Shown here in pieces: positions 1,368 through 45,038 of a DNA stretch of 55,213 bases. Within the stretch, counting starts at the first letter, position 1. The number at the start of each line of letters is the position of its first letter. Made by a program: the position numbers and the translations under genes. Origin of the DNA: Nanobdellati archaeon (GTDB lineage Archaea > B1Sed10-29 > WALL01); the NCBI GenBank assembly GCA_015522845.1, contig WALL01000009.1:1-55213 (forward strand), in the 5' to 3' direction. Below the pieces are notes generated by a model. That model saw only the letters and a list, made by a program, of their open reading frames with translations, was not told the origin of the DNA and did no database searches.

Positions 1368-3821
1368 TCATGGCGAGCAGCTGATGTTGAGGTTTATGTT
1401 GTCAAACCGGAACTCCGCCCACTCGCCGTTGTCCCAATCATGCACCTTTCCGCCAAAGTCCGCGTAATATGTCCCCGCGCCGGTTATGTAGCTGCTTACG
1501 TCGATTGCCTCCGAGCCGGATGTGCTGGACGGGTTGGATTGGTAGAGTATGTCATTTGTTGAGTCGTCCCCGTACCCGCCGTCCTGGCTTCCGAGATAGT
1601 TCATCCCACTGCTGTTGCCAAACCTGGCCTTCACCCATATGTAGTCGTTGTCAAACAATCCGCCGAGCCCATGGTTTGTGAACGACCAGTCGAAGTAAAG
1701 TGTCGCATTCCCGCCATTACTTATTTCAGTGTACATCCCAGGCGTTATCGTGAACTGCACCCCGAAGGCGCCGCTTCCTGAACCGTCGTCTGAGCAGCCG
1801 TTGTTGACGTCGCCTATCTCTATCTTCAGGTCATCGTCGCTGTCGACACCGCTGCTGACAGCAGTTGTTGTTGGGTTGGTAGCACTTACGTACTGCTGCC
1901 CGGCGAAGTAAACACAGCTGCTCCCGCTGCTGTATGTGTTCCAGTCCCAGTCCCAGCCGTCGTCGCCCGCATCAGCACCGAATGTGTTTGCCGTTGTATT
2001 GAGCCCGCCCGTGAAGTCCACCGGCTGCGGCTTGTCGCTGTCAAGCTCCCATATGTCAACTGTGTAGGGGCAGCTCTTGTTGTTTGTGAACGACGTGCTG
2101 TTCGACAGCCAGTTGTCGTTGGTATCATTTGCGTAGAACACAACAGTATGCGCCCCGCCGCCAATGCCCGACACGTATTTAGATGCGCTCTTGTTGGTAG
2201 TGTTCATGCTCTGGTTTGCCCCGCCATCCAGCGAATACCATGCACTGTCAAGCACGGCGTTCGAGCTCACGTTAAACCACATGGAACTTGTCTGGTATGT
2301 TGTGTTTTCCGGCGAAAGGATGTTTAGCTCCCTGATTGCCTCCCCGTAACACACCTCAAAAGCCATCCAGTCTATGTATGCTGTAGTCTTAGTAAGCGAA
2401 TCTGAGAGGTAGTCCACCCGCGTGCCTATCCATTTTGCCTGGCCGATTGTGCTTGAGACATTTGTTTTGTTCACTGTGCATACATCTATTATGTCGGACA
2501 AGGAGCTGCTAGACATTGTGCACACGGTCTTTCCCCAGCCGTTGCTGGTGAGCCACTGGAGTATAGGTGTGATATCCTCCATCCCATCCCCCTCGTGGTG
2601 CTCCACCCACTCGGTCATGTTGTAAATCACAGTATCGCTCCCGCTTCCCGGAAGCGCGAACGAGAAAGCACCCTCTATAAACGCAAGATTGTCCTTCTGG
2701 ACATTTGGCTCCTCAACATAAACATCATCGCTGTAGCGGGCGTTTTCAGTTTCGTTTTCGTATTCCCCATTTATGGCCCAGAGCAGCGACGCATTGAAGC
2801 ACCACGGCTCCGGCCCGTAGTCCGTCGTGAACCAGACGTCGTCAGTCCCCGACTTGCCGTTGTCCCCGACACACATGAGTGTCAGGTGCTGCGGGCCGCC
2901 GGTTGTCATTATTGTGGTGTTTCCCCCTATCGTGACCACGTCCCCCCCATTGATTGTGTAGCCGCACCAGTCGGTGGTCCCGTTGACAGTGTAGGTGAGG
3001 TTTGTGGGATAGCTAGTGTAAGTGGTGTTCGTTGGCTCGATTATGTGCACAAGCAGCCCGCCTGCTATGCCATTACCTGTCCCGCTGCCGGTGACTATGA
3101 CCTTCAGGTAGATGCTGTCCGTGGCGTTGCCGTCGCTTGCCACGATCGTTCCGGTGTATTCGCCAAATGCAGTCCCTGAAGGCACGCTTATTGTCACATT
3201 AGTGGAGTTGCTTGATAGTGCATTGAGCGAGAGCGAGCTATCCCCAAGCGATGCCCATGACCCGACATCCCCTGCAGCGCTAAGCGATATCTGCCGCGCA
3301 TAGCCGCCAACTTCAGTTGCGTTCAGCACAAAGCTAGAGTTTTGCCCAGGCTCCAGGTTCACGGTGTAGCTTGTCGGGCTAAGCACAAAGCCAAGCTCGT
3401 ATGGAGAGATAAGGACATACCCTTCAGGCATCTTCTCCACCTGGAAACGGAAGTTCCCGCTGTTGCCCGGCCATGCCCCCCGGACCTCTCCCTGTGTGTC
3501 CTTAAACACATCCGTGATTCCGCCCGTTTGAGTGTAGACGGCAAGGTTTATTTCCTGCCCGCCCGTTGCGGTGGGATGGCCGATGTAGCTGTCGGCCCAC
3601 TTGACCCCGCTAGGGATATAGGCATCGACAAGCTGCTTCGCGCCCGGAGCCTGGTAATAAATGTAGTCCGCCGTCTTCGCCAGCGAGCTCACGGCCAGGT
3701 CCGCCTGCAGCACCCTTGACGACTCGCTTGCCTGTGTGAACACGTAATAGCCCGCCGGAAGTATCAAAAGCAATATAAATCCTAGTATCAAAAGGAACTC
3801 TGTGGCAGCCTGCCCGCGCAT
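1368..3821 (-). CDS. Giant (817 aa) prepilin-like surface protein/adhesin, N-x-S/T-rich
   Basis: The N-terminus MRGQAATEFLLILGFILLLILPAGYYVF is a class III signal peptide. The rest is rich in Asn/Ser/Thr/Gly with many N-x-S/T sequons (NSS, NAT, NST, NVT, NTT, NLT, NGT and others). It is the first gene of a four-gene pilin operon. Confidence 0.75.
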   Translation of the reverse strand: MRGQAATEFLLILGFILLLILPAGYYVFTQASESSRVLQADLAVSSLAKTADYIYYQAPGAKQLVDAYIPSGVKWADSYIGHPTATGGQEINLAVYTQTGGITDVFKDTQGEVRGAWPGNSGNFRFQVEKMPEGYVLISPYELGFVLSPTSYTVNLEPGQNSSFVLNATEVGGYARQISLSAAGDVGSWASLGDSSLSLNALSSNSTNVTISVPSGTAFGEYTGTIVASDGNATDSIYLKVIVTGSGTGNGIAGGLLVHIIEPTNTTYTSYPTNLTYTVNGTTDWCGYTINGGDVVTIGGNTTIMTTGGPQHLTLMCVGDNGKSGTDDVWFTTDYGPEPWCFNASLLWAINGEYENETENARYSDDVYVEEPNVQKDNLAFIEGAFSFALPGSGSDTVIYNMTEWVEHHEGDGMEDITPILQWLTSNGWGKTVCTMSSSSLSDIIDVCTVNKTNVSSTIGQAKWIGTRVDYLSDSLTKTTAYIDWMAFEVCYGEAIRELNILSPENTTYQTSSMWFNVSSNAVLDSAWYSLDGGANQSMNTTNKSASKYVSGIGGGAHTVVFYANDTNDNWLSNSTSFTNNKSCPYTVDIWELDSDKPQPVDFTGGLNTTANTFGADAGDDGWDWDWNTYSSGSSCVYFAGQQYVSATNPTTTAVSSGVDSDDDLKIEIGDVNNGCSDDGSGSGAFGVQFTITPGMYTEISNGGNATLYFDWSFTNHGLGGLFDNDYIWVKARFGNSSGMNYLGSQDGGYGDDSTNDILYQSNPSSTSGSEAIDVSSYITGAGTYYADFGGKVHDWDNGEWAEFRFDNINLNISCSP

Positions 3822-3836
3822 GAGCTACTAAATGAG

Positions 3837-3851
3837 TATATAATATATAAA
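3837..3851. promoter_or_regulatory. TATA-like element in a 39-nt divergent intergenic spacer (possible bidirectional, leaderless promoters)
   Basis: tatataatatataaa lies about 10-24 nt from the ATG at 3861 (+) and about 16-30 nt from the ATG at 3821 (-). There is no room for a leader or SD on either side. Confidence 0.35.
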
Positions 3852-3860
3852 GCTGATTAA

Positions 3861-4496
3861 ATGGCTAAAATAAAAACAGGCATCAAAGAATTCAATGAGA
3901 TAGCCACAGGGCTTCCAATGCCGTCTGCAATCCTCGTGCAAGGCCCGCCGGGTGCTGGCAAGTCAATATTTTCGCTGCTGCTAATGGACACCAGGGGGAA
4001 GGAGAAAAAAGTTGTGCTGCTCACAAACAACACCCCTGCTGAAATCAAGGAGGAGATGAAGGCCTCTAAAATAGGGTTCGAGCCAGGCATAATTGACTGC
4101 TATTCCTGGCTAAGCGGCGGCAAGGCGGCGGTTGACTCCCTTGCCAACTTGAGCAAGGTAACATTCCTCATTGAGGATGCCATCAGTGAGGGGGCCATCG
4201 TGCTTTTTGACTCGCTGACGCCGCTTATTCTCTACAATTCCGAGGAGGAGATAGAGCGCTTCATGCAGCAGGCCATTGCAATTGTTAAGTCCAAGGGCGC
4301 ACTGATACTGTTCACTCTTGACTCTAGCACCTATCCAAGCGATGCAGAGGAGACCTTCCGCTCGCTCTGCGATGGGGTGATAAGCCTAGACCCTGCTAAG
4401 GGGCTCACCATACTAAAAATGCGCGGCATGCAGGCACCCTCAAAGCCGTTCTTCTATGAGATAGGCGCAAAAGGGTTTAAGCTGAGGGCAAGATAG
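3861..4496 (+). CDS. KaiC/RecA-superfamily single-domain ATPase (paralog 1)
   Basis: Walker A GPPGAGKS, Walker B-like IVLFDSLT, and C-terminal LTILKMRG as in KaiC/RadA-like ATPases. Confidence 0.8.
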   Translation: MAKIKTGIKEFNEIATGLPMPSAILVQGPPGAGKSIFSLLLMDTRGKEKKVVLLTNNTPAEIKEEMKASKIGFEPGIIDCYSWLSGGKAAVDSLANLSKVTFLIEDAISEGAIVLFDSLTPLILYNSEEEIERFMQQAIAIVKSKGALILFTLDSSTYPSDAEETFRSLCDGVISLDPAKGLTILKMRGMQAPSKPFFYEIGAKGFKLRAR

Positions 4497-4542
4497 CAAG
4501 TTTAAACCCCCCTTAGAAAGGTTTAAATTCGCTGTTGCTGTA

Positions 4543-4881
4543 ATGTATCCAATGGCTAAGCTAAAGGGGATTGAGCTAGAAGACGACCACTTCCTTGTTA
4601 GCTTCCGCATAAGCAAAAGGGAATATGACCTTTTCAAGCACGGGAATAAGCACTTTTTGCTGGTCCCATTAAGTGGGATGTACAACCAGCTGACAATAGG
4701 CACACTTGGCAACTCCTACCGCCTTATGCTCCCCAAGAAATTCCTGAAGGAGCACGGGATAGCCGAGGACAAGCTGCCAAAAAAAGCAGATGCAGGGGTG
4801 TTTTCGATAGGCGGCGAGAAATACCTCACGGTTAGGATATCTAGCTCCACACTTGGGGAGCCACAGTTTGAGGGTGAATGA
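4543..4881 (+). CDS. AbrB/SpoVT-like small DNA-binding protein (tentative)
   Basis: GNSYRLMLPKKFLKEHGIAEDK resembles the swapped-hairpin (x-x-IPK-x-x-R-x-x-LGI) signature. The gene sits between two KaiC-like genes. Confidence 0.4.
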   Translation: MYPMAKLKGIELEDDHFLVSFRISKREYDLFKHGNKHFLLVPLSGMYNQLTIGTLGNSYRLMLPKKFLKEHGIAEDKLPKKADAGVFSIGGEKYLTVRISSSTLGEPQFEGE

Positions 4882-4882
4882 A

Positions 4883-5557
4883 ATGAAGCGCTATACTACT
4901 GGGCTATCCAACCTGGATAAGCTCATTGGGGGGGGGCTGCCAGAGCATACTGTTACGCTGCTGAGCGGCAATGCGGGCACAGGCAAAACCCTGTTTGCAC
5001 TTAATTTCCTCCTTGCTGGCGCAAAGAAAGGCGAGAAGGGCGTGTTCGTCTCCCTCAATGAGGGCAAGGGCGACCTGCTCCGCGCCTGCGATGGCATTGC
5101 CCAGCTAAAGCCAATCAGGAAATACCTCAACAAGAGCATACTAATCCAGGAGATTGACCTTGAGGAGGTAATCGACCTGGAATACTTCACAAAGATATTT
5201 GAGAAGTACTCAAATGTAGACCGCGTTGCCATTGACAACGTCAACAAGCTGCTTCTCTTTTCGAACGGCGACAAGGACTACCGCATCAACCTATCCCGTG
5301 TAATTAAGAACCTCCGCGCAAACGTCGGCTCCTCACTGCTGCTTTGCGAAACGCTCGACCATACGCTTGACACCAACCGTGGCGAGACCTACGAGGCAGA
5401 CGGTGTCATCAACCTATCCTTCCTTGAGGTAGAGGAAAAGCCAAGCCGCACGCTCGAAATAACAAAGATGCGCTACACCCCGTTTGATGCCTATGTCCAG
5501 CACGAGCTCTCAATCTCGAAGAAAGGCTTAAAACTGACCAAGGCGAAATTTATCTGA
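4883..5557 (+). CDS. KaiC/RecA-superfamily single-domain ATPase (paralog 2)
   Basis: MKRYTTGLSNLDKLIGGGLPEHTVTLLSGNAGTGKT (Walker A), VAIDNVN (Walker B) and LEITKMR. The ATG at 4883 lies 1 nt after the upstream stop, with GAGGGTGA upstream. Confidence 0.8.
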   Translation: MKRYTTGLSNLDKLIGGGLPEHTVTLLSGNAGTGKTLFALNFLLAGAKKGEKGVFVSLNEGKGDLLRACDGIAQLKPIRKYLNKSILIQEIDLEEVIDLEYFTKIFEKYSNVDRVAIDNVNKLLLFSNGDKDYRINLSRVIKNLRANVGSSLLLCETLDHTLDTNRGETYEADGVINLSFLEVEEKPSRTLEITKMRYTPFDAYVQHELSISKKGLKLTKAKFI

Positions 5558-21958: not shown

Positions 21959-22055
21959 TGCACCGGCCGGGATTCGAACCCGGGTTATTGGCTTTCTCCC
22001 AACCGATTTGCGGTTGTTGGAAGGCCAAAGTCCTACCAGGCTAGACTACCGGTGC
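21959..22055 (-). tRNA. tRNA-Gly (anticodon UCC) with a 24-nt intron at the canonical 37/38 position
   Basis: GCACCGG/CCGGTGC acceptor, and anticodon stem TTGGC/GCCAA interrupted after CTTCCA by ACAACCGCAAATCGGTTGGGAGAA. The intron helix CAACCG/CGGTTG is compatible with a bulge-helix-bulge. T arm CCGGG-TTCGAAT-CCCGG. Confidence 0.85.
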
Positions 22056-37272: not shown

Positions 37273-37863
37273 TTACCTTATTGCCTTTTCGCCGTTTTGG
37301 TTCCGCACCTTAATGTGCTTTGGCCCCTCGAGGTCGCGGGCAATCCTTTCAAGCCCACTAAGCTCCCTGTCTGCATATATGATAAGCGTACCCGTTAGCT
37401 GCGAGGCGGCATCGCGTATATCCCCATCCTGAAGGCCATTTGCATCAAGCACTACCTCATGCGCAACGCCGGACGACTCCAGCATCCTGATGCTTTTCCT
37501 TACCTCTTCAAAGCTATGCTTCCCCGCCTTCTCAAACGAGTCCCTGTAAAGCGGCGCAGGGATATGGACAGAAACGTAGTCAACTACTTTCCTAGCAATC
37601 ATTTTCCCAAGCTGTTTTGGGTTGGAGCCATCGGTCTCAATGCGGACAAGCTTCCCCTTTAGCTTCATCCTCTTTGCTATTATTGGCAGGTCGCTTTGCC
37701 CTTCCACATCCCCCCTAAAGATGACTGCATTCGTGGTAAAGTTCTTGTGGAGCTCAGCCTCTAGCTCCCGCATGCTGTGCCGGCCATTCCCAGCCACAAT
37801 TACCATTGAGATTTTGCCAGGCCACGCTTTTGTGTCTTGGCTGGTGTAGCTGGCTATGTCCAT
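37273..37863 (-). CDS. NrdG-like radical-SAM fold protein lacking all cluster cysteines (cysteine-free paralog)
   Basis: It aligns with the NrdG at 38509 (AWPGKISMVIVAGNGRHSMRELEAEL versus DYPGNVSTIIFTGGCNMRCPFCHNFEL; LVRIETDGSNP versus LVKLDSNGLNP; VDYVSVHIPAP versus IDYIAMDVKAP). The protein contains no Cys at all. Confidence 0.65.
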   Translation of the reverse strand: MDIASYTSQDTKAWPGKISMVIVAGNGRHSMRELEAELHKNFTTNAVIFRGDVEGQSDLPIIAKRMKLKGKLVRIETDGSNPKQLGKMIARKVVDYVSVHIPAPLYRDSFEKAGKHSFEEVRKSIRMLESSGVAHEVVLDANGLQDGDIRDAASQLTGTLIIYADRELSGLERIARDLEGPKHIKVRNQNGEKAIR

Positions 37864-38508: not shown

Positions 38509-39201
38509 TCAAATTCCACGAATGCAAGTCTTTTTCACTTTCTTCTTTGCGATTTCCTCGAATTGCCTGAGCACCTTTGGCTCGTAAGCCTTTGAAAGCG
38601 GGCCCTCTTTTTTTACGGCGTTGTACTGCTGGAGGCAGTACTTCTCGGCACCCTCGACAAGCGAGACAACATCTGCAAACTCATCCTGGGGTATGAATGC
38701 GGGGACGACGGTGGTCCTAAACTCATATTCCACGCCAGAGCCCATTATAAGGCGTATGCTTTCCCTTATCTTTGACATGTCTATGGGCACGCCAGTTGCT
38801 TCGCTGTAATGCTTCTCAGGCGCCTTGACATCCATTGCGATGTAGTCAATCACAGGGAAAAGCTCCTTCAGCGCATTAGGGTTCAGGCCATTGCTGTCAA
38901 GCTTAACTAGCAGGCCAGTCCTTTCCCTTATGCGCTCTATGAACCCCTTCAGCGCAGGCATCCAAAGCGTTGGCTCCCCACCGGTTATGACAACGCCATC
39001 TATGAACTTTTTCCTCTCGTCAAGGTAGTCAAGCACCTGCTGTTCCGGGATTTTCTCAAACTTCTCCGGCTCTGTTGCCAGCTCGAAGTTGTGGCAGAAC
39101 GGGCAGCGCATGTTACATCCGCCGGTGAAAATTATGGTTGATACATTGCCTGGATAGTCTATCAGTGTCTGCGGAAGGATCCCGCGGATATCAACTTCCA
39201 T
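38509..39201 (-). CDS. nrdG: Anaerobic ribonucleoside-triphosphate reductase activating protein (radical SAM)
   Basis: GGCNMRCPFCHN is the CxxxCxxC cluster motif, and VVITGGEPTL is the SAM-binding motif. The ATG at 39201 lies 4 nt after the stop of the glycyl-radical mini-ORF. Confidence 0.85.
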   Translation of the reverse strand: MEVDIRGILPQTLIDYPGNVSTIIFTGGCNMRCPFCHNFELATEPEKFEKIPEQQVLDYLDERKKFIDGVVITGGEPTLWMPALKGFIERIRERTGLLVKLDSNGLNPNALKELFPVIDYIAMDVKAPEKHYSEATGVPIDMSKIRESIRLIMGSGVEYEFRTTVVPAFIPQDEFADVVSLVEGAEKYCLQQYNAVKKEGPLSKAYEPKVLRQFEEIAKKKVKKTCIRGI

Positions 39202-39205
39202 TGGC

Positions 39206-39364
39206 TCACGCAGTGCTCTTTTTTGGCGCAGTTGCAACCGCTGCTTGCTTCAGGTTAAAGAATTTCCTGTCCCTGAACTCTTCCTGCTTTCCTTCGTTCC
39301 AGTTGCTAATTGGCCTAAAATAGCCAACAACCCTGCTGTAAACTTCAACTTTTTCATCACACAT
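39206..39364 (-). CDS. Stand-alone glycyl-radical peptide of the class III RNR (52 aa)
   Basis: MCDEKVEVYSRVVGYFRPISNWNEGKQEEFRDRKFF... carries the NrdD C-terminal glycyl-radical signature (R-V-V-G-Y ... W-N-x-G-K-x-x-E-F). AAGGAGGT lies about 8 nt upstream of the ATG. The ORF is below the 60-aa cutoff of the supplied track. Confidence 0.7.
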   Translation of the reverse strand: MCDEKVEVYSRVVGYFRPISNWNEGKQEEFRDRKFFNLKQAAVATAPKKSTA

Positions 39365-39379
39365 TTTTCATTACCTCCT

Positions 39380-41335
39380 TTAGTCGTATGGGCATTTTTC
39401 GTGTGCCCCGGGTATGTACCCATGTACCGGGCATATTGTGAATGTTGGCGTCACAGAGAAGTAAGGCAGCTTGTAGTTCTCTGCAACCCTCCGCACGAGC
39501 TTCTTGGTCGACTCCGCATCCTCAAGCCTTTCGCCGAGGTATGCATGGAGCACTGTCCCGCCGGTGTACCTCCTCTGCAGCTCGTCCTGGTGCTCAAGCA
39601 CCTTAAACAAGTCGTCAGAGTAGTTGGCAGGGAGCTGTGTGGAGTTAGTGTAGTATGGTGCCTTTGTCCCCTGGGTAAATATGTTTGGGAATTCCTTCTT
39701 GTCTATCTTTGCCAGGCGGTAGCTTGCCCCCTCAGCCGGCGATGCTTCAAGGTTGTAGATGTGGCCTGTCTCCTCCTGGAAGTCAGATATCCTATCGCGC
39801 ATAAAGTCCATTACCTTTATTGCGAACTTCCTCCCGTCGTCAGTGTATATCCCCTCGCCAAGGAAGTTTACGCAGCTTTCATTCATGCCTACAAGCCCAA
39901 TGGTTGTGAAGTGGTGGTCCAGCGTGCCAAGGTAGCGCTTTGTATAAGGCAGCAGGCCACGGTCTATGTTCCCCTGGACCTCTTTCCTCTTTATCTCAAG
40001 CGAGGTCTTTGCAAGCAGCATGAGGTGGTCAAGGTTCTCGAAATAGCTGTCCTCATCGCGTGAGAGGTAGCCAAGGCGCGACATATTGATTGTGACGACA
40101 CCGACAGAGCCTGTTGACTCCCCTGAGCCAAACAGGCCGCCGGTCTTATTCCTTAGCTCGCGGAGGTCTAGCTGGAGGCGGCAGCACATTGAGCGCACAT
40201 CGCTTGGGTCTAGGTCACTGTTTATGAAATTCTGGAAGTAGGGAATCCCATACTTTGCAGTCATCTCAAACAGCAGGTTCGAGTTTTCGGAATCCCAGTC
40301 AAAGTCTTTTGTTATGTTGTAGGTTGGTATTGGGAACGTGAATATCCTCCCATTTGCGTCCCCCTCCATCATCACCTCAAGGAATGCCTTATTAACTAAG
40401 TCCATCTCTGGCTGGTAGTCTGCATAAGTCTCATCGGTTATCTCGCCGCCATAGACAATTGGGCTGTCCCTCAAGTCTTTTGGGACAACCCAGTCAAAGG
40501 TTAGGTTTGTGAATGGCGTTTGGTTCCCCCACCTGCTCGTTTGGTTAGCCGAGAATATGAACTCCTGTATGCCCTGCTTTATTTGGTCGTAGGAGAGGCG
40601 GTCCTTGCGGACAAAGGGGGCAAGGTAAGTGTCGAAGCTTGAGAACGCCTGTGCGCCAGCCCACTCATTCTGCAATGTTCCTAAGAAGTTCACCATCTGC
40701 CCAAGCGCAGCATCAAAGTGCCTTGCTGGCTTTGCGGATACCCTCCCGGGCACACCGTTAAACCCCTCATTAAGCAGCTGCGCAAGCGACCAGCCAGCGC
40801 AGTAGCCAGCAAGCGTGCCATAGCTAAGGTCGTGGATGTGGAAGTCGCCCTCACGGTGTGCCTGGGCAACGTCTTTTGGATATACATTATTAAGCGTGTA
40901 TTCTGCGACAACCGTGCCACTCAGGTTCGCCTGCAGCCCGCTTAGCGAGTAGCTTGCATTGCTGTTCTCCTTGACGCGCCAGTCCTGGAGGTTGACATAG
41001 CCATCAATCATCTCCGTTACTTTTTCAACGAAGCTCTTTTCGCTCCTCATCCGCGCACGCTGCTCACGGTAAAGTATGTATGCCTTCGCGGTTGAGGCAT
41101 GGCCATCCTCAATAAGCACCTTCTCGACAGCATCCTGTACTTCCTCAATGGAGGGCATCTGGTTATCAAATTTTTTCTCCAGTGCTGCAACTACTTCACC
41201 TGCCAGCTTGGCTGCTAGCTCGCGGTTATTGCCGCCAACCGCACGGGCAGCCTTAAATATGGCATTAGTGATCCTGCTCTTGTCGAAATCAACTACACGC
41301 CCATCGCGCTTGCGTATCTTACGGATTTTAGCCAT
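39380..41335 (-). CDS. nrdD: Anaerobic (class III) ribonucleoside-triphosphate reductase, large chain truncated before the glycyl-radical domain
   Basis: N-terminal ATP-cone (IRKRDGRVVDFDKSRITNAI...), active-site motifs GYCAGWS and SMCCRLQLD. It ends ...CPVHGYIPGAHEKCPYD-stop, in the middle of the Zn-site. Confidence 0.85.
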   Translation of the reverse strand: MAKIRKIRKRDGRVVDFDKSRITNAIFKAARAVGGNNRELAAKLAGEVVAALEKKFDNQMPSIEEVQDAVEKVLIEDGHASTAKAYILYREQRARMRSEKSFVEKVTEMIDGYVNLQDWRVKENSNASYSLSGLQANLSGTVVAEYTLNNVYPKDVAQAHREGDFHIHDLSYGTLAGYCAGWSLAQLLNEGFNGVPGRVSAKPARHFDAALGQMVNFLGTLQNEWAGAQAFSSFDTYLAPFVRKDRLSYDQIKQGIQEFIFSANQTSRWGNQTPFTNLTFDWVVPKDLRDSPIVYGGEITDETYADYQPEMDLVNKAFLEVMMEGDANGRIFTFPIPTYNITKDFDWDSENSNLLFEMTAKYGIPYFQNFINSDLDPSDVRSMCCRLQLDLRELRNKTGGLFGSGESTGSVGVVTINMSRLGYLSRDEDSYFENLDHLMLLAKTSLEIKRKEVQGNIDRGLLPYTKRYLGTLDHHFTTIGLVGMNESCVNFLGEGIYTDDGRKFAIKVMDFMRDRISDFQEETGHIYNLEASPAEGASYRLAKIDKKEFPNIFTQGTKAPYYTNSTQLPANYSDDLFKVLEHQDELQRRYTGGTVLHAYLGERLEDAESTKKLVRRVAENYKLPYFSVTPTFTICPVHGYIPGAHEKCPYD

Positions 41336-41832: not shown

Positions 41833-42339
41833 ATGCAAGCAAGGCCAACTAAAGATGAGTACTATCTTGAGATAGCAAAGGCGGTCGGTCTCCGCTCGCC
41901 CTGCCTGCGCAAGAAGTTTGGCGCCATAATTGTCCTTAATGATGCAATTGTCTCAACCGGCTACAACGGACCGCCCCGCGGCGGGGTAAACTGCTATGAC
42001 GTTGGCTGCCTGCGCGAGAAGATGAACCGCCCCCACTACTCAGCCTATGATGACTCCTGCCCTGCAGTGCATGCTGAGGAGAACAGCATCATCAATGCGG
42101 CACGCAACGGCACTAAGGTGATGGGCGGCGTGCTTTACATACAGGGAGTATCCCCAGAAGACGGCTCGCTTGTTGAGTCTAGGCCCTGCCACCGATGCCG
42201 CCGTGCACTAATAAATGCGGGCATTGAAGAGGTGGTTACCCGCAACACTGGCGGAGAGATACTGCACTACAATGTTGCTGAGTGGATACGCGAGGACACC
42301 GAGGAATACATAAGAAAATATAACGAAGTGGCAAAATGA
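41833..42339 (+). CDS. dCMP/CMP deaminase (zinc-dependent)
   Basis: HAEENSIINAA (H-A-E) and PCHRCRRALINAGI (PCxxC). Confidence 0.85.
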   Translation: MQARPTKDEYYLEIAKAVGLRSPCLRKKFGAIIVLNDAIVSTGYNGPPRGGVNCYDVGCLREKMNRPHYSAYDDSCPAVHAEENSIINAARNGTKVMGGVLYIQGVSPEDGSLVESRPCHRCRRALINAGIEEVVTRNTGGEILHYNVAEWIREDTEEYIRKYNEVAK

Positions 42340-42647
42340 AGGTTTTCTTATTTGTGTCCTCGAGGTGCACCCATTGCCCAAAGGCAGAGAAGATGGCAAA
42401 GAGGATGTTCCCTGAATACTATGATAAGGGGCTCTCATTTACGAAGGTGCGCATGAAGACAAGCGAGGGAAAGCACATGGCAAAGGAATACAGCATACGT
42501 GGCACCCCCACATTTATCTTCCTTGATGACAGTGGCAGCTACCTTGACAGGATTGTTGGCGTGCCAAGCGAGGGCACACTCCGCGGTGCGGTTGAGAAGC
42601 ACCTTGGGATTAGGAAATCAATTTTTAGCAAGCTTCTTGGAAAATGA
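42336..42647 (+). CDS. Thioredoxin/glutaredoxin-fold protein (CxxC)
   Basis: MKVFLFVSSRCTHCPKAEKMAK...IRGTPTFIFLD. ATGA overlap with the deaminase gene. Confidence 0.7.
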   Translation: MKVFLFVSSRCTHCPKAEKMAKRMFPEYYDKGLSFTKVRMKTSEGKHMAKEYSIRGTPTFIFLDDSGSYLDRIVGVPSEGTLRGAVEKHLGIRKSIFSKLLGK

Positions 42648-43082: not shown

Positions 43083-45038
43083 TTATTCTTTTCGCTTTAA
43101 GGTAAATGCCAAGGCACCCTTCCTTAAGAGCTCGTAGGCCTTGCTGCTTGGGCTCTCATAGCTGCTTATGTCCAGTTTTGCAGCCCCCTGGCAGTAGTGC
43201 TGGAGCCGGATTTCACTTTCAGCCCATGCGCCCTCGTCAGCAAGGCGGTGGGTAAAGCCATGGGATGGGTAAACCTCCTTAACGCCAAACCGCCTCTCGT
43301 TCATCTTTGAAAGCCGGGCGGAGGCTGCAGCAGCATCAAGGTTCCCAAACAAGAAATACCCCCCCTCACTGTTGTATTTTTCAAGCTTGTCCTTTGCGTA
43401 GGCAAGCACCCTCTCGGCAAACTTGAATGCTGACGTGCTCTTGTTTATCTCCTCGCCAGTGTAGTCTGCTACGGCATTGTCAAGCCCTAGCACGCTTATA
43501 ACCGCTGGCGCGCTATCCAGCGAATAGTACTCGTTCCCCCCAGACTTTTGGGATAGGAAGGGGAGTATCCTATCCTTGTGCAGGCGCGCTTCAATTATCT
43601 TCCTCTTCTCATCAACGGCCTTTTTTGAAAGCTCAAGCGCATGGTCAAACTCGCTAAAGAAGTCTGCATCATCCTTGGCAGAAAGGCCTATGGCAGGCAA
43701 GTTCAGCGTTACCTCCTGCAGCACCCCAGTCCTTAGCGTTGTAAACCACTTGCCATTCCGTGGGGACAGCATGTGGTTCGGGGAGACGGCGTTCATATTC
43801 TGCCCATGCCCGCGAAGGTTCAGCACAACAAGGTCGTTCTTTTCCAGGAATTGCGGGAGCACTTTTTCAGTGCTTAGCGGGATAGACCCCCCCCGCACTT
43901 TCAGCACTACCATTGGTGTTGTGAATGCCCTGCCATTGTAGTCGCCGGCAGCCATTGTCTCAAAGAAAAGGTTAAGGAAGCGGATGCTCTCACGCTCAAA
44001 GTCGTAGTAGCTGTCCTGGCCAGTGATGCCCTTTGGCAGTATTGCCCGCTCCTTCTTTAGGAAGGGAGGGGTCTCCAGCTCAAAGTTGAGGGTTGACTGT
44101 GCAAGGCTGCCGCCGCGCACAGAATATATTTGGTTTAGCTCGTAAAGGAAAGTTTGTATTGCCTGCCTGATTTCCTTATCCGATAGGCCAATGGTGTATG
44201 GCGCCATGAAGGTGTTAAAGAAGTCGAAGGACTGCCCCCCGCTAAGGTGCGTTTCCCCAGAAAGCATGACACGTATTGCGTGTGATATTGCGACCGCCGC
44301 GTGCTTTGCTGGGCCTGCAACCGTGGCCTTCCCAAGCCCGTCAGTGGCAACGCCGTTCTGCAGGAACCAGCGGAGGTCGTTTTGCAGGCTTACGGGCCTC
44401 GTTGCAAAATAGGGCAGGTCATGGATATGGATGACCCCACTAAGGTGGGCCTTTGAGACATCCTCAGGCAGCAGCTTTACCAGCGCATATTCCCCAGCAA
44501 CGGTATCGCCAAACTTCTTGTGCAGCGCCTCAGGGTTTGGGGTGCCTGGCGTTTGTATTATCCTTGTAACGTCGTAAATTGGCAGGCCAAGCCGGGTGTA
44601 TTCGGTCTTTGCCTGCATATACCTCCTTTCAAGGAGCTTTGAGCTCACCATCTCGCGTATGAGCGGTGCAGATATGTACCTTAGCTCAAGGCGGCGGATA
44701 TCACCCTCAACCTCGCTTGCTATTTCAGCACACGTGTTTTGCGGGAGGGTGGTCTCCTTCATCAGCGACTCAGCTATCTTCTGCTTCTTAAATGACTCAA
44801 GCATGCCGTCGCTCGTGCGCACATAAATCCTGTGGTAGTTCTCAAACAGCCTTGCTGCCTGCTCGTCCCTTTTCTGGAGCTCCTTTACAACAAGGTCGTT
44901 CAGCTCCTCGTCAGTGATATCACTGCCCACCTTTGGCTGCAGTGCAAGCGCTACCTCGCTGGCGAGCCAGAAGCTGATGCCCGCCTTTTTGCACTTGTCT
45001 TCAATGACCTTTGGGTTGAAGTTCGAACCAGAAGCCAC
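43083..45038 (-). CDS. NrdD-like protein with an ATP-cone but without catalytic cysteines, Zn site or glycyl-radical motif
   Basis: It aligns with the nrdD at 39380 (HIHDLPYF versus HIHDLSYG; GDYNGRAFTTPMVVLKV versus GDANGRIFTFPIPTYNI; EVTLNLPAIGL versus VVTINMSRLGY). However, GYCAGW is replaced by TRPVSL and MCCRL by VVLNL. ATP-cone: IYVRTSDGMLESFKKQKIAESL... Confidence 0.7.
   Translation of the reverse strand: MASGSNFNPKVIEDKCKKAGISFWLASEVALALQPKVGSDITDEELNDLVVKELQKRDEQAARLFENYHRIYVRTSDGMLESFKKQKIAESLMKETTLPQNTCAEIASEVEGDIRRLELRYISAPLIREMVSSKLLERRYMQAKTEYTRLGLPIYDVTRIIQTPGTPNPEALHKKFGDTVAGEYALVKLLPEDVSKAHLSGVIHIHDLPYFATRPVSLQNDLRWFLQNGVATDGLGKATVAGPAKHAAVAISHAIRVMLSGETHLSGGQSFDFFNTFMAPYTIGLSDKEIRQAIQTFLYELNQIYSVRGGSLAQSTLNFELETPPFLKKERAILPKGITGQDSYYDFERESIRFLNLFFETMAAGDYNGRAFTTPMVVLKVRGGSIPLSTEKVLPQFLEKNDLVVLNLRGHGQNMNAVSPNHMLSPRNGKWFTTLRTGVLQEVTLNLPAIGLSAKDDADFFSEFDHALELSKKAVDEKRKIIEARLHKDRILPFLSQKSGGNEYYSLDSAPAVISVLGLDNAVADYTGEEINKSTSAFKFAERVLAYAKDKLEKYNSEGGYFLFGNLDAAAASARLSKMNERRFGVKEVYPSHGFTHRLADEGAWAESEIRLQHYCQGAAKLDISSYESPSSKAYELLRKGALAFTLKRKE

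Follow-up and report, generated by a model that had tools for sequence, protein, structure and literature searches.

A class III ribonucleotide reductase gene split inside the zinc site

In the 55,213-nt contig WALL01000009.1 of the Nanobdellati archaeon assembly GCA_015522845.1 (hereafter the window), the genes of an anaerobic (class III) ribonucleotide reductase (RNR) lie on the minus strand as three consecutive open reading frames (ORFs). The large chain NrdD comes first, a 52-codon mini-ORF with the glycyl-radical loop follows, and nrdG, encoding a radical S-adenosylmethionine (SAM) activase, closes the series:

41335..39380, minus strand: nrdD large chain, 651 amino acids (aa), with an ATP-cone, the ten-stranded barrel and three of the four zinc ligands
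41054..41320, minus strand: ATP-cone of the large chain, residues 6-94 (PF03477, E 5.5e-26)
40181..40186, minus strand: finger loop Cys384-Cys385 (SMCCRL), the expected thiyl-radical site, invariant in alignment A3
39392..39433, minus strand: Cys635-x2-His638 ... Cys648, three zinc-ribbon ligands at the extreme C-terminus of the large chain
39382..39380, 39379..39373 and 39372..39365, minus strand: junction, made of the TAA stop, the Shine-Dalgarno (SD) sequence AGGAGGT and the 8-nt spacer AATGAAAA
39364..39206, minus strand: mini-ORF of 52 codons, the glycyl-radical chain, with the sequence MCDEKVEVYSRVVGYFRPISNWNEGKQEEFRDRKFFNLKQAAVATAPKKSTA and TGA at 39208..39206
39361..39359, minus strand: peptide Cys2, putative fourth zinc ligand
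39325..39323, minus strand: peptide Gly14 in RVVGY, the radical site, with the C-terminal tail beyond
38509..39201, minus strand: nrdG, radical-SAM activase, 230 aa from ATG 39201 (TIGR02495, NrdG2, 197 bits, cut-off 131)

The large chain ends in ...HEKCPYD (...ICPVHGYIPGAHEKCPYD-TAA, also given as ...TPTFTICPVHGYIPGAHEKCPYD-TAA). Its residues 123-649 match positions 1-525 of the 562 in the Pfam profile PF13597 (NRDD; 587 bits), and the match to NCBIfam NF006126 spans positions 3-645 (1061 bits, cut-off 548). The mini-ORF product takes up the same two profiles at positions 527-562 (E 7e-11) and 647-683, so that the cuts, between 525 and 527 in one and between 645 and 647 in the other, mark a clean domain boundary. 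A preliminary description of this DNA, made from its letters and ORFs, had pointed out that joining the chains restores a normal NrdD C-terminus, and both profiles match the joined chains end to end. The finger-loop cysteines of the large chain correspond to the thiyl site established for class III RNR, which takes the radical from the glycine (PMC11226230). A glycyl-radical loop is absent from the large chain; a second radical motif there had been named beforehand as evidence against a split, and it was sought and not found. No other NrdD C-terminal peptide or glycyl-radical motif is present elsewhere in the window. Neither chain by itself thus carries both a zinc ribbon and an RVxGY loop, and every sequence feature expected of the NrdD family (PF13597; NF006126/TIGR02487) is found on the two chains taken together.

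Three zinc ligands, Cys635, His638 and Cys648, stay with the large chain at the break, and the fourth, Cys2, belongs to the peptide. The three large-chain ligands are invariant columns in alignment A3 with unsplit homologues and align with the zinc ribbon of Thermotoga maritima NrdD (VCEDGH...CPVC); peptide Cys2 aligns with the near-invariant fourth cysteine of the unsplit homologues, the last one of T. maritima CPVC. The reading on the minus strand and the profile cuts bear out the earlier claim that nrdD stops inside the second ligand pair, but its wording in terms of cysteine pairs has to be amended, for the first 'pair' in the present NrdD subfamily is Cys-x2-His (CPVH) and not CxxC.

The TAA is followed by 15 nt (AGGAGGT AATGAAAA) and then by ATG-TGT at 39364. 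Both ORFs share one frame in the window, and the 24 nt from TAC to TGT carry three in-frame stops besides the SD sequence and the ATG, all as first described. The nrdG start at ATG 39201, 4 nt past the mini-ORF stop, was likewise read correctly; translation might alternatively begin at a TTG upstream, at 39237, and the product also matches Pfam Radical_SAM and Fer4_12. No stable RNA fold was found at the junction (minimum free energy -13.5 kcal/mol, z = 0.44 against shuffles), and promoter and terminator scans inside the operon returned nothing exceeding chance. Pfam and NCBIfam hold no model specific to the small radical protein. A tandem duplication (GGTAATGAAAAA beside TGTGATGAAAAA) was considered as the origin of the linker; the repeat is A-rich and short, and we note it as a possible source of the linker and place no evidential weight on it.

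The split is conserved and under purifying selection

The split recurs with the same breakpoint at five further loci from independent assemblies, namely GCA_027007625.1, three European Nucleotide Archive (ENA) metagenome contigs and one Joint Genome Institute (JGI) contig. The exact window peptide is encoded in GCA_027007625.1 and in one independent ENA contig, where the junction is identical too, and peptides 90-94% identical to it occur on one JGI and two ENA contigs. The relatives L007-L009 (locus numbers are ours) keep CPYD-stop, SD and ATG-TGT with a linker 4 nt shorter, so that their two ORFs stand in different frames. In the more distant L033 (an archaeal single-cell genome), L090 and L091 the junction reads CP[YF]x-stop-AGGTGAT-N5-ATG-TGY; their large chains are 68-81% identical to that of the window, and peptide identity falls to about 58%. 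Overall, a stop followed by AGGTGAT or AGGAGGT, 4-8 nt and ATG-TGY is common to six lineages, and the last large-chain residue varies between D, N, S and K while ATG-TGY stays invariant. The 24-nt cassette pointed out earlier is kept in its order of stop, SD and start, but not always in its length. The split is older than the divergence of lineages now at ~58% peptide and 68-81% large-chain identity.

We estimated dN/dS (the ratio of nonsynonymous, dN, to synonymous, dS, substitution rates) by the Nei-Gojobori method for the window against L007 and L008, comparisons in which synonymous sites are near saturation:

peptide: dN/dS 0.04, dS 0.8-1.4
large chain: dN/dS 0.03, dS 1.2-1.4
nrdG: dN/dS 0.04-0.08, dS 1.1-1.3

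These low ratios on all three genes mean that they have been kept by selection long after the split, and neither frameshifts nor relaxed constraint were seen in either piece among the relatives. The preliminary description had favored a functional gene split over decay; the conserved breakpoint, SD and ATG-TGY, together with the strong purifying selection, point the same way.

Zinc ligands are distributed between the chains in a complementary way

Across about a dozen split lineages, the zinc ligands of the two chains complement each other. Large chains that stop with the third ligand (the window clade, L093, L010, L069 and L021) are paired with peptides in which a cysteine precedes E[VI]Y by 5-6 residues. 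That cysteine is missing from the peptides whose large chains carry CPxC (L003, L076, L072, L065/68, L082), or CPxxH and then a helical tail (L001/24/52/84/79/81). This complementarity supports, indirectly, the earlier suggestion of a zinc site completed in trans; judging from these alignments, we think it rather likely that such a site forms and tethers the peptide.

A virtual covalent fusion of the two chains was predicted by AlphaFold2 as a confident NrdD fold (mean predicted local distance difference test score, pLDDT, 82; predicted template modelling score 0.80), with residues 631-690 at pLDDT 74-90. Its best structural matches were the NrdDs of Prevotella copri, Streptococcus thermophilus, T. 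maritima and phage T4. In P. copri NrdD the glycyl radical domain of ~64 residues moves as a mobile rigid body (PMC11226230), which makes a split at this point structurally plausible.

Split class III reductases are widespread

A search with the 52-aa peptide returned 221 clusters; all 120 matches listed are 43-89 aa long, some of them encoded on contigs of megabase size. Among the 120 closest large-chain clusters, about 85 stop soon past the third zinc ligand and have no radical motif, those with named members coming from Candidatus Diapherotrites and Nanoarchaeota. The split is thus the majority state among the closest NrdD relatives and is not peculiar to the window genome. In a profile search over 1.84 billion representatives, 148 of the 150 top matches were shorter than 200 aa, a proportion not usable as a frequency; contig-end fragments cluster separately in that search.

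Farther afield, the operon of Calditerrivibrio nitroreducens encodes a 675-aa chain, a 59-aa protein (RefSeq WP_049770148.1) and NrdG, and a 4.8-Mb Spirochaetota genome (L001) has a large chain ending in ...CPYDHSQDELIEHGIEVDGA, a 104-nt spacer, a 54-aa peptide and NrdG. (The large chain of L001, at 2862-4896, is called as two overlapping ORFs of 288 and 393 aa, which may reflect a frameshift or a long-read assembly error lying upstream of the real split.) A scan of Genome Taxonomy Database (GTDB) species genomes added split operons from Verrucomicrobia, Victivallis, Spirochaetota/Leptospirales, Thermodesulfobacteriota, Caldisericota, Bacillota (in the order large chain, nrdG, peptide), Aenigmatarchaeota and unclassified archaea, and the split is also found, with differing junctions, in Lentisphaerota and other groups. 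The two pieces are separated in these other lineages by gaps of 100 nt or more, overlap, or have nrdG between them. In a TARA Diapherotrites metagenome-assembled genome (L094 4506-4652; GCA_002688035.1, NZBU01000009.1), an overlapping 48-aa peptide (MSECGEKTEIYSRVVGY...) has its SD embedded in the last codons of the large chain; the gene is called on the ENA copy of the contig and missing from the NCBI/GenBank gene calls of the same contig. Since the small ORF is sometimes left unannotated, split NrdDs can look truncated or inactive in genome surveys and RNR classifications. Taken together, the arrangement is conserved, under selection and widespread, and its bearers form a large overlooked group.

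Split and unsplit forms are interleaved among close relatives. For 181 large chains, Fitch parsimony required at least 16 changes between the split and the unsplit state. The neighbour-joining trees used were rough, being built from BLOSUM62 distances, rooted at the midpoint and lacking support values, and they show only that there were several origins or reversals. Split forms sit in many tree positions and the junctions differ by lineage, and we conclude from these sequence comparisons that fission, perhaps re-fusion too, occurred repeatedly.

Proposed mechanism and alternative explanations

The locus very probably encodes an obligate two-chain class III RNR, as judged from gene anatomy and comparison. 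One operon transcript would carry the large-chain gene, the 52-codon radical peptide and nrdG. The ribosome would stop the 651-aa chain at the TAA and restart at the conserved SD-ATG 15 nt on, which would couple the translation of the two chains. The peptide would contribute what the large chain lacks, that is Cys2 as the fourth zinc ligand, the RVVGY loop and the C-terminal tail. NrdG would convert Gly14 of that loop to the glycyl radical, acting on either the free or the docked peptide. The peptide would assemble in trans with the barrel, held by a zinc site of the three large-chain ligands and Cys2, and the docked loop would set the radical beside finger-loop Cys384/385, after which catalysis would proceed as in single-chain NrdD. 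A benefit could lie, for instance, in the cheap replacement of a peptide cleaved by oxygen at its radical glycine.

Several points weigh against this reading or temper it. The evidence for the two-chain enzyme is at the level of genes, and the genome is seen through 55 kb, so another RNR may lie elsewhere in it. The SD motif is in itself no rarer than chance in the window (3 matches to GGAGGTRA against 2.2 expected); its weight comes from being conserved at exactly the same spot in relatives. The structural model, being a covalent fusion, speaks for compatibility with the NrdD fold and not for assembly in trans. As for prevalence, the GTDB scan kept only the 80 loci most like split peptides and is biased accordingly, and the short matches of the large profile search include contig-end fragments and gain from the HMMER length correction.

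An error of assembly or sequencing at 39360..39385 is the least credible of the alternatives. The window does come from a metagenome-assembled genome, but GCA_027007625.1 and an independent ENA contig show exactly the same junction, and JGI, ENA and Logan assemblies of other samples contain homologous, diverged versions of it. We consider it nearly as improbable that an insertion disrupted nrdD not long ago and that the gene is heading for loss in a genome relying on another RNR. The limited 55 kb in view would allow for such an enzyme, and the presence of an apparently catalytically dead NrdD-like paralogue 1.7 kb off indicates that catalytic residues can be lost from members of the NrdD family in this lineage. 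A gene in decay would hardly show a dN/dS of 0.03-0.04 on both pieces at near-saturated synonymous divergence; all catalytic and ligand residues are intact, the split predates lineages at ~58% peptide identity, and nrdG has been retained and is itself constrained. Recoding, by stop read-through or by a hop over the 24-nt gap like that of T4 gene 60, would give one fused NrdD, and the mini-ORF would be no independent gene. It might seem attractive given the shared frame in the window, the stop directly after the last sense codon, an SD-like element within the gap, and the likeness between the last large-chain codon GAC (Asp) and peptide codon 3, GAT, with a similar AAG/AAA (Lys) in L033. That pairing of take-off and landing codons fails in L090 (Asn against Asp) and L091 (Ser against Asn), with gap length and frame varying as well, and we rejected it. 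Read-through is ruled out by L007-L009, where the gap is 4 nt shorter and the frames differ, and it would have to pass three in-frame stops in the window. The invariant ATG-TGY fits initiation and a ligand cysteine, which an Asp-to-Asp hop would remove; the junction lacks a stable hairpin (z = 0.44), and elsewhere the two pieces lie 100 nt or more apart, overlap or flank nrdG. Recoding is thus largely refuted, and what remains of it seems to us very unlikely.

A different kind of alternative accepts the two-chain enzyme and disputes only the benefit. By this account the fission was neutral: the chains form an ordinary NrdD, tolerated since the radical domain is autonomous and mobile, with coupling holding the stoichiometry and no gain in exchange, repair or regulation. 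The many junctions and the frequent changes counted above suggest that fission (perhaps re-fusion) is easy, and the interleaving of both forms among close relatives fits as well. The dominance of the split form in a large clade, its long persistence, and extra or orphan peptide copies that hint at a use of their own for the free peptide speak to the contrary, none of them decisively. We regard neutral fission as plausible, though not quite probable. More tentatively still, the two-chain enzyme might use its peptide as an exchangeable cofactor, charged by NrdG off the enzyme and plugged into the barrel; once oxygen had cleaved it at the radical glycine and its fragments had left, a fresh peptide would bring activity back. 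If so, a large unrecognised branch of class III RNRs (in DPANN-like archaea, Spirochaetota, Lentisphaerota and others) would have built-in repair, and the extra and orphan copies in Patescibacteria, Pacearchaeota, Desulfobacteraceae and Victivallaceae would serve as real spare parts, taking the GrcA principle beyond formate lyases.

Comparison with known systems

To our knowledge, every characterised glycyl radical enzyme carries the radical glycine and the active site on one chain. The glycine is buried in the barrel yet must reach the activase, and the exit and re-entry of its domain are a long-standing question, which a naturally separate radical peptide of 52 residues renders directly testable. 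The split also bears on the oxygen damage of glycyl radical enzymes. With the single-chain NrdD and NrdG of phage T4, Escherichia coli, T. maritima and P. copri, the system shares the ATP-cone, the barrel, the finger-loop cysteines, the Cys/His zinc ribbon, the RVxGY loop, the C-terminal tail and the adjacent nrdG. Unlike in those enzymes, the chain is cut inside the zinc ribbon, and the last ligand, loop and tail form a product of their own with its own SD and start.

The preliminary description had likened the peptide to GrcA/YfiD (InterPro IPR011140), an autonomous glycyl radical cofactor by which pyruvate formate-lyase (PFL) is rescued after cleavage by oxygen (PMC8683613; PMC13450708). 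The functional likeness holds, also with T4 Y06I: a small free polypeptide bears the glycyl-radical loop, is presumably activated by the cognate radical-SAM activase and would dock on a large chain that has no working radical domain. Homology and role differ, however. The peptide matches the NrdD profile only, with no PFL-type Gly_radical match at E <= 0.01, and it is the enzyme's sole radical domain, not a spare, and probably adds a zinc ligand. A 2021 study raised the question of spare parts for other glycyl radical enzymes (PMC8683613), and a 2026 review names formate lyases as the only ones with identified spare-part proteins (PMC13450708).

RNRs of other classes are also known in pieces. 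The class II NrdJa/NrdJb of Pseudomonas aeruginosa and Thermus phage phiYS40 are encoded by adjacent genes whose products reassemble (PMC9669993; PMC3653736), and the same goes for class Ia NrdA-a/NrdA-b of Aeromonas phage Aeh1 (PMC3045599). Those splits have other breakpoints, and none of them parts the barrel from the element that stores the radical; in Aeh1 the split arose through insertion of a homing endonuclease, and no such gene is present at the window nrdD. The nrdD 'splits' of phages are intron, intein or frameshift-like interruptions and not a separate radical peptide (PMC3653736). In agreement with the preliminary description, our searches of open-access papers and bioRxiv turned up no account of a class III RNR in split form; an earlier mention elsewhere is possible.

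Additional radical peptides and neighboring genes

Several Patescibacteria and Pacearchaeota have a full, unsplit NrdD and an extra ORF of ~95 aa between nrdD and nrdG:

L023 3622-3939
L029 3622-3921
L031 3631-3924
L050 3632-3928
L051 3687-3983

These extra ORFs have their own four-Cys ribbon (CHDCG...KCNEC) and an EVYSRVVGY radical loop, and it is this arrangement of class III RNR genes that truly resembles GrcA, the extra ORF being a possible spare part. Orphan NrdD-type radical peptides (e.g. MSKCGAICEVFSRVCGYFRP...) occur in L011, L012, L020, L025, L026, L035, L039 and L042 (Lentisphaeria/Victivallaceae) and in L040 and L059 (Desulfobacteraceae-like). The set includes a 130-aa form with CHDCG...KCDPC...EVYSRVVGY, and no NrdD large chain or NrdG lies within 3.5 kb of its members. 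A split operon (L069) and an orphan copy (L035) are both found in Victivallis vadensis genomes. The protein P0141 (192 aa) begins as an NrdD radical peptide (MNKRCGEECEVYSRVVGYFRP...) and continues as a domain like deoxycytidine monophosphate (dCMP) deaminase (HAEQ...PCVICAK), through a fusion or a missed stop.

In two Aenigmatarchaeota (L065 1600-2594, L068 1606-2594), an in-frame insertion of ~330 aa lies between the residues aligning with Cys384 and Cys385 and is probably an intein at the active-site cysteine. Their nrdD is also split from the radical peptide, and related intein-containing NrdDs (PF14528/PF14890) were among the homologue matches.

Around the split nrdD the window holds the following genes:

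43083..45038, minus strand: second NrdD-like ORF, 651 aa, 1.7 kb from nrdD
42336..42647, plus strand: thioredoxin-like gene (CTHC)
41833..42339, plus strand: dCMP deaminase
37273..37863, minus strand: 196-aa ORF downstream of nrdG

The second NrdD-like ORF has an ATP-cone and an NRDD barrel with 24% identity to NrdD, carries VSPNH in place of the finger-loop Cys-Cys, lacks both zinc ribbon and glycyl-radical loop, and looks like a catalytically dead paralogue. Its family is conserved (49-83% identity) in Diapherotrites-like archaea, and in L090 and L033 a member shares a contig with the split nrdD. The thioredoxin-like and dCMP deaminase genes are divergent from nrdD and upstream of it, and dCMP deaminase is also a divergent nrdD neighbor in L090 and L092. 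A thioredoxin-like neighbor, taken with the Cys-Cys finger loop and established knowledge of NrdD subtypes, suggests a reductant of the thioredoxin rather than the formate type.

The 196-aa ORF is weakly similar to NrdG over the C-terminal half of the latter (tblastn, 31% over 67 aa, E 1e-6) and gives a below-cut-off match to Pfam Radical_SAM (E 2e-4). It has no cysteine and therefore cannot bind an Fe-S cluster; genes matching it in size and position are found in L005 and L008. As to RNA genes, Rfam and ARAGORN detected tRNAs only and no rRNA in the window; its placement among DPANN-like archaea follows the names borne by the nearest homologues. A 97-nt Rfam tRNA match at 21959..22055 on the minus strand, not called by ARAGORN, may be an intron-containing archaeal tRNA.

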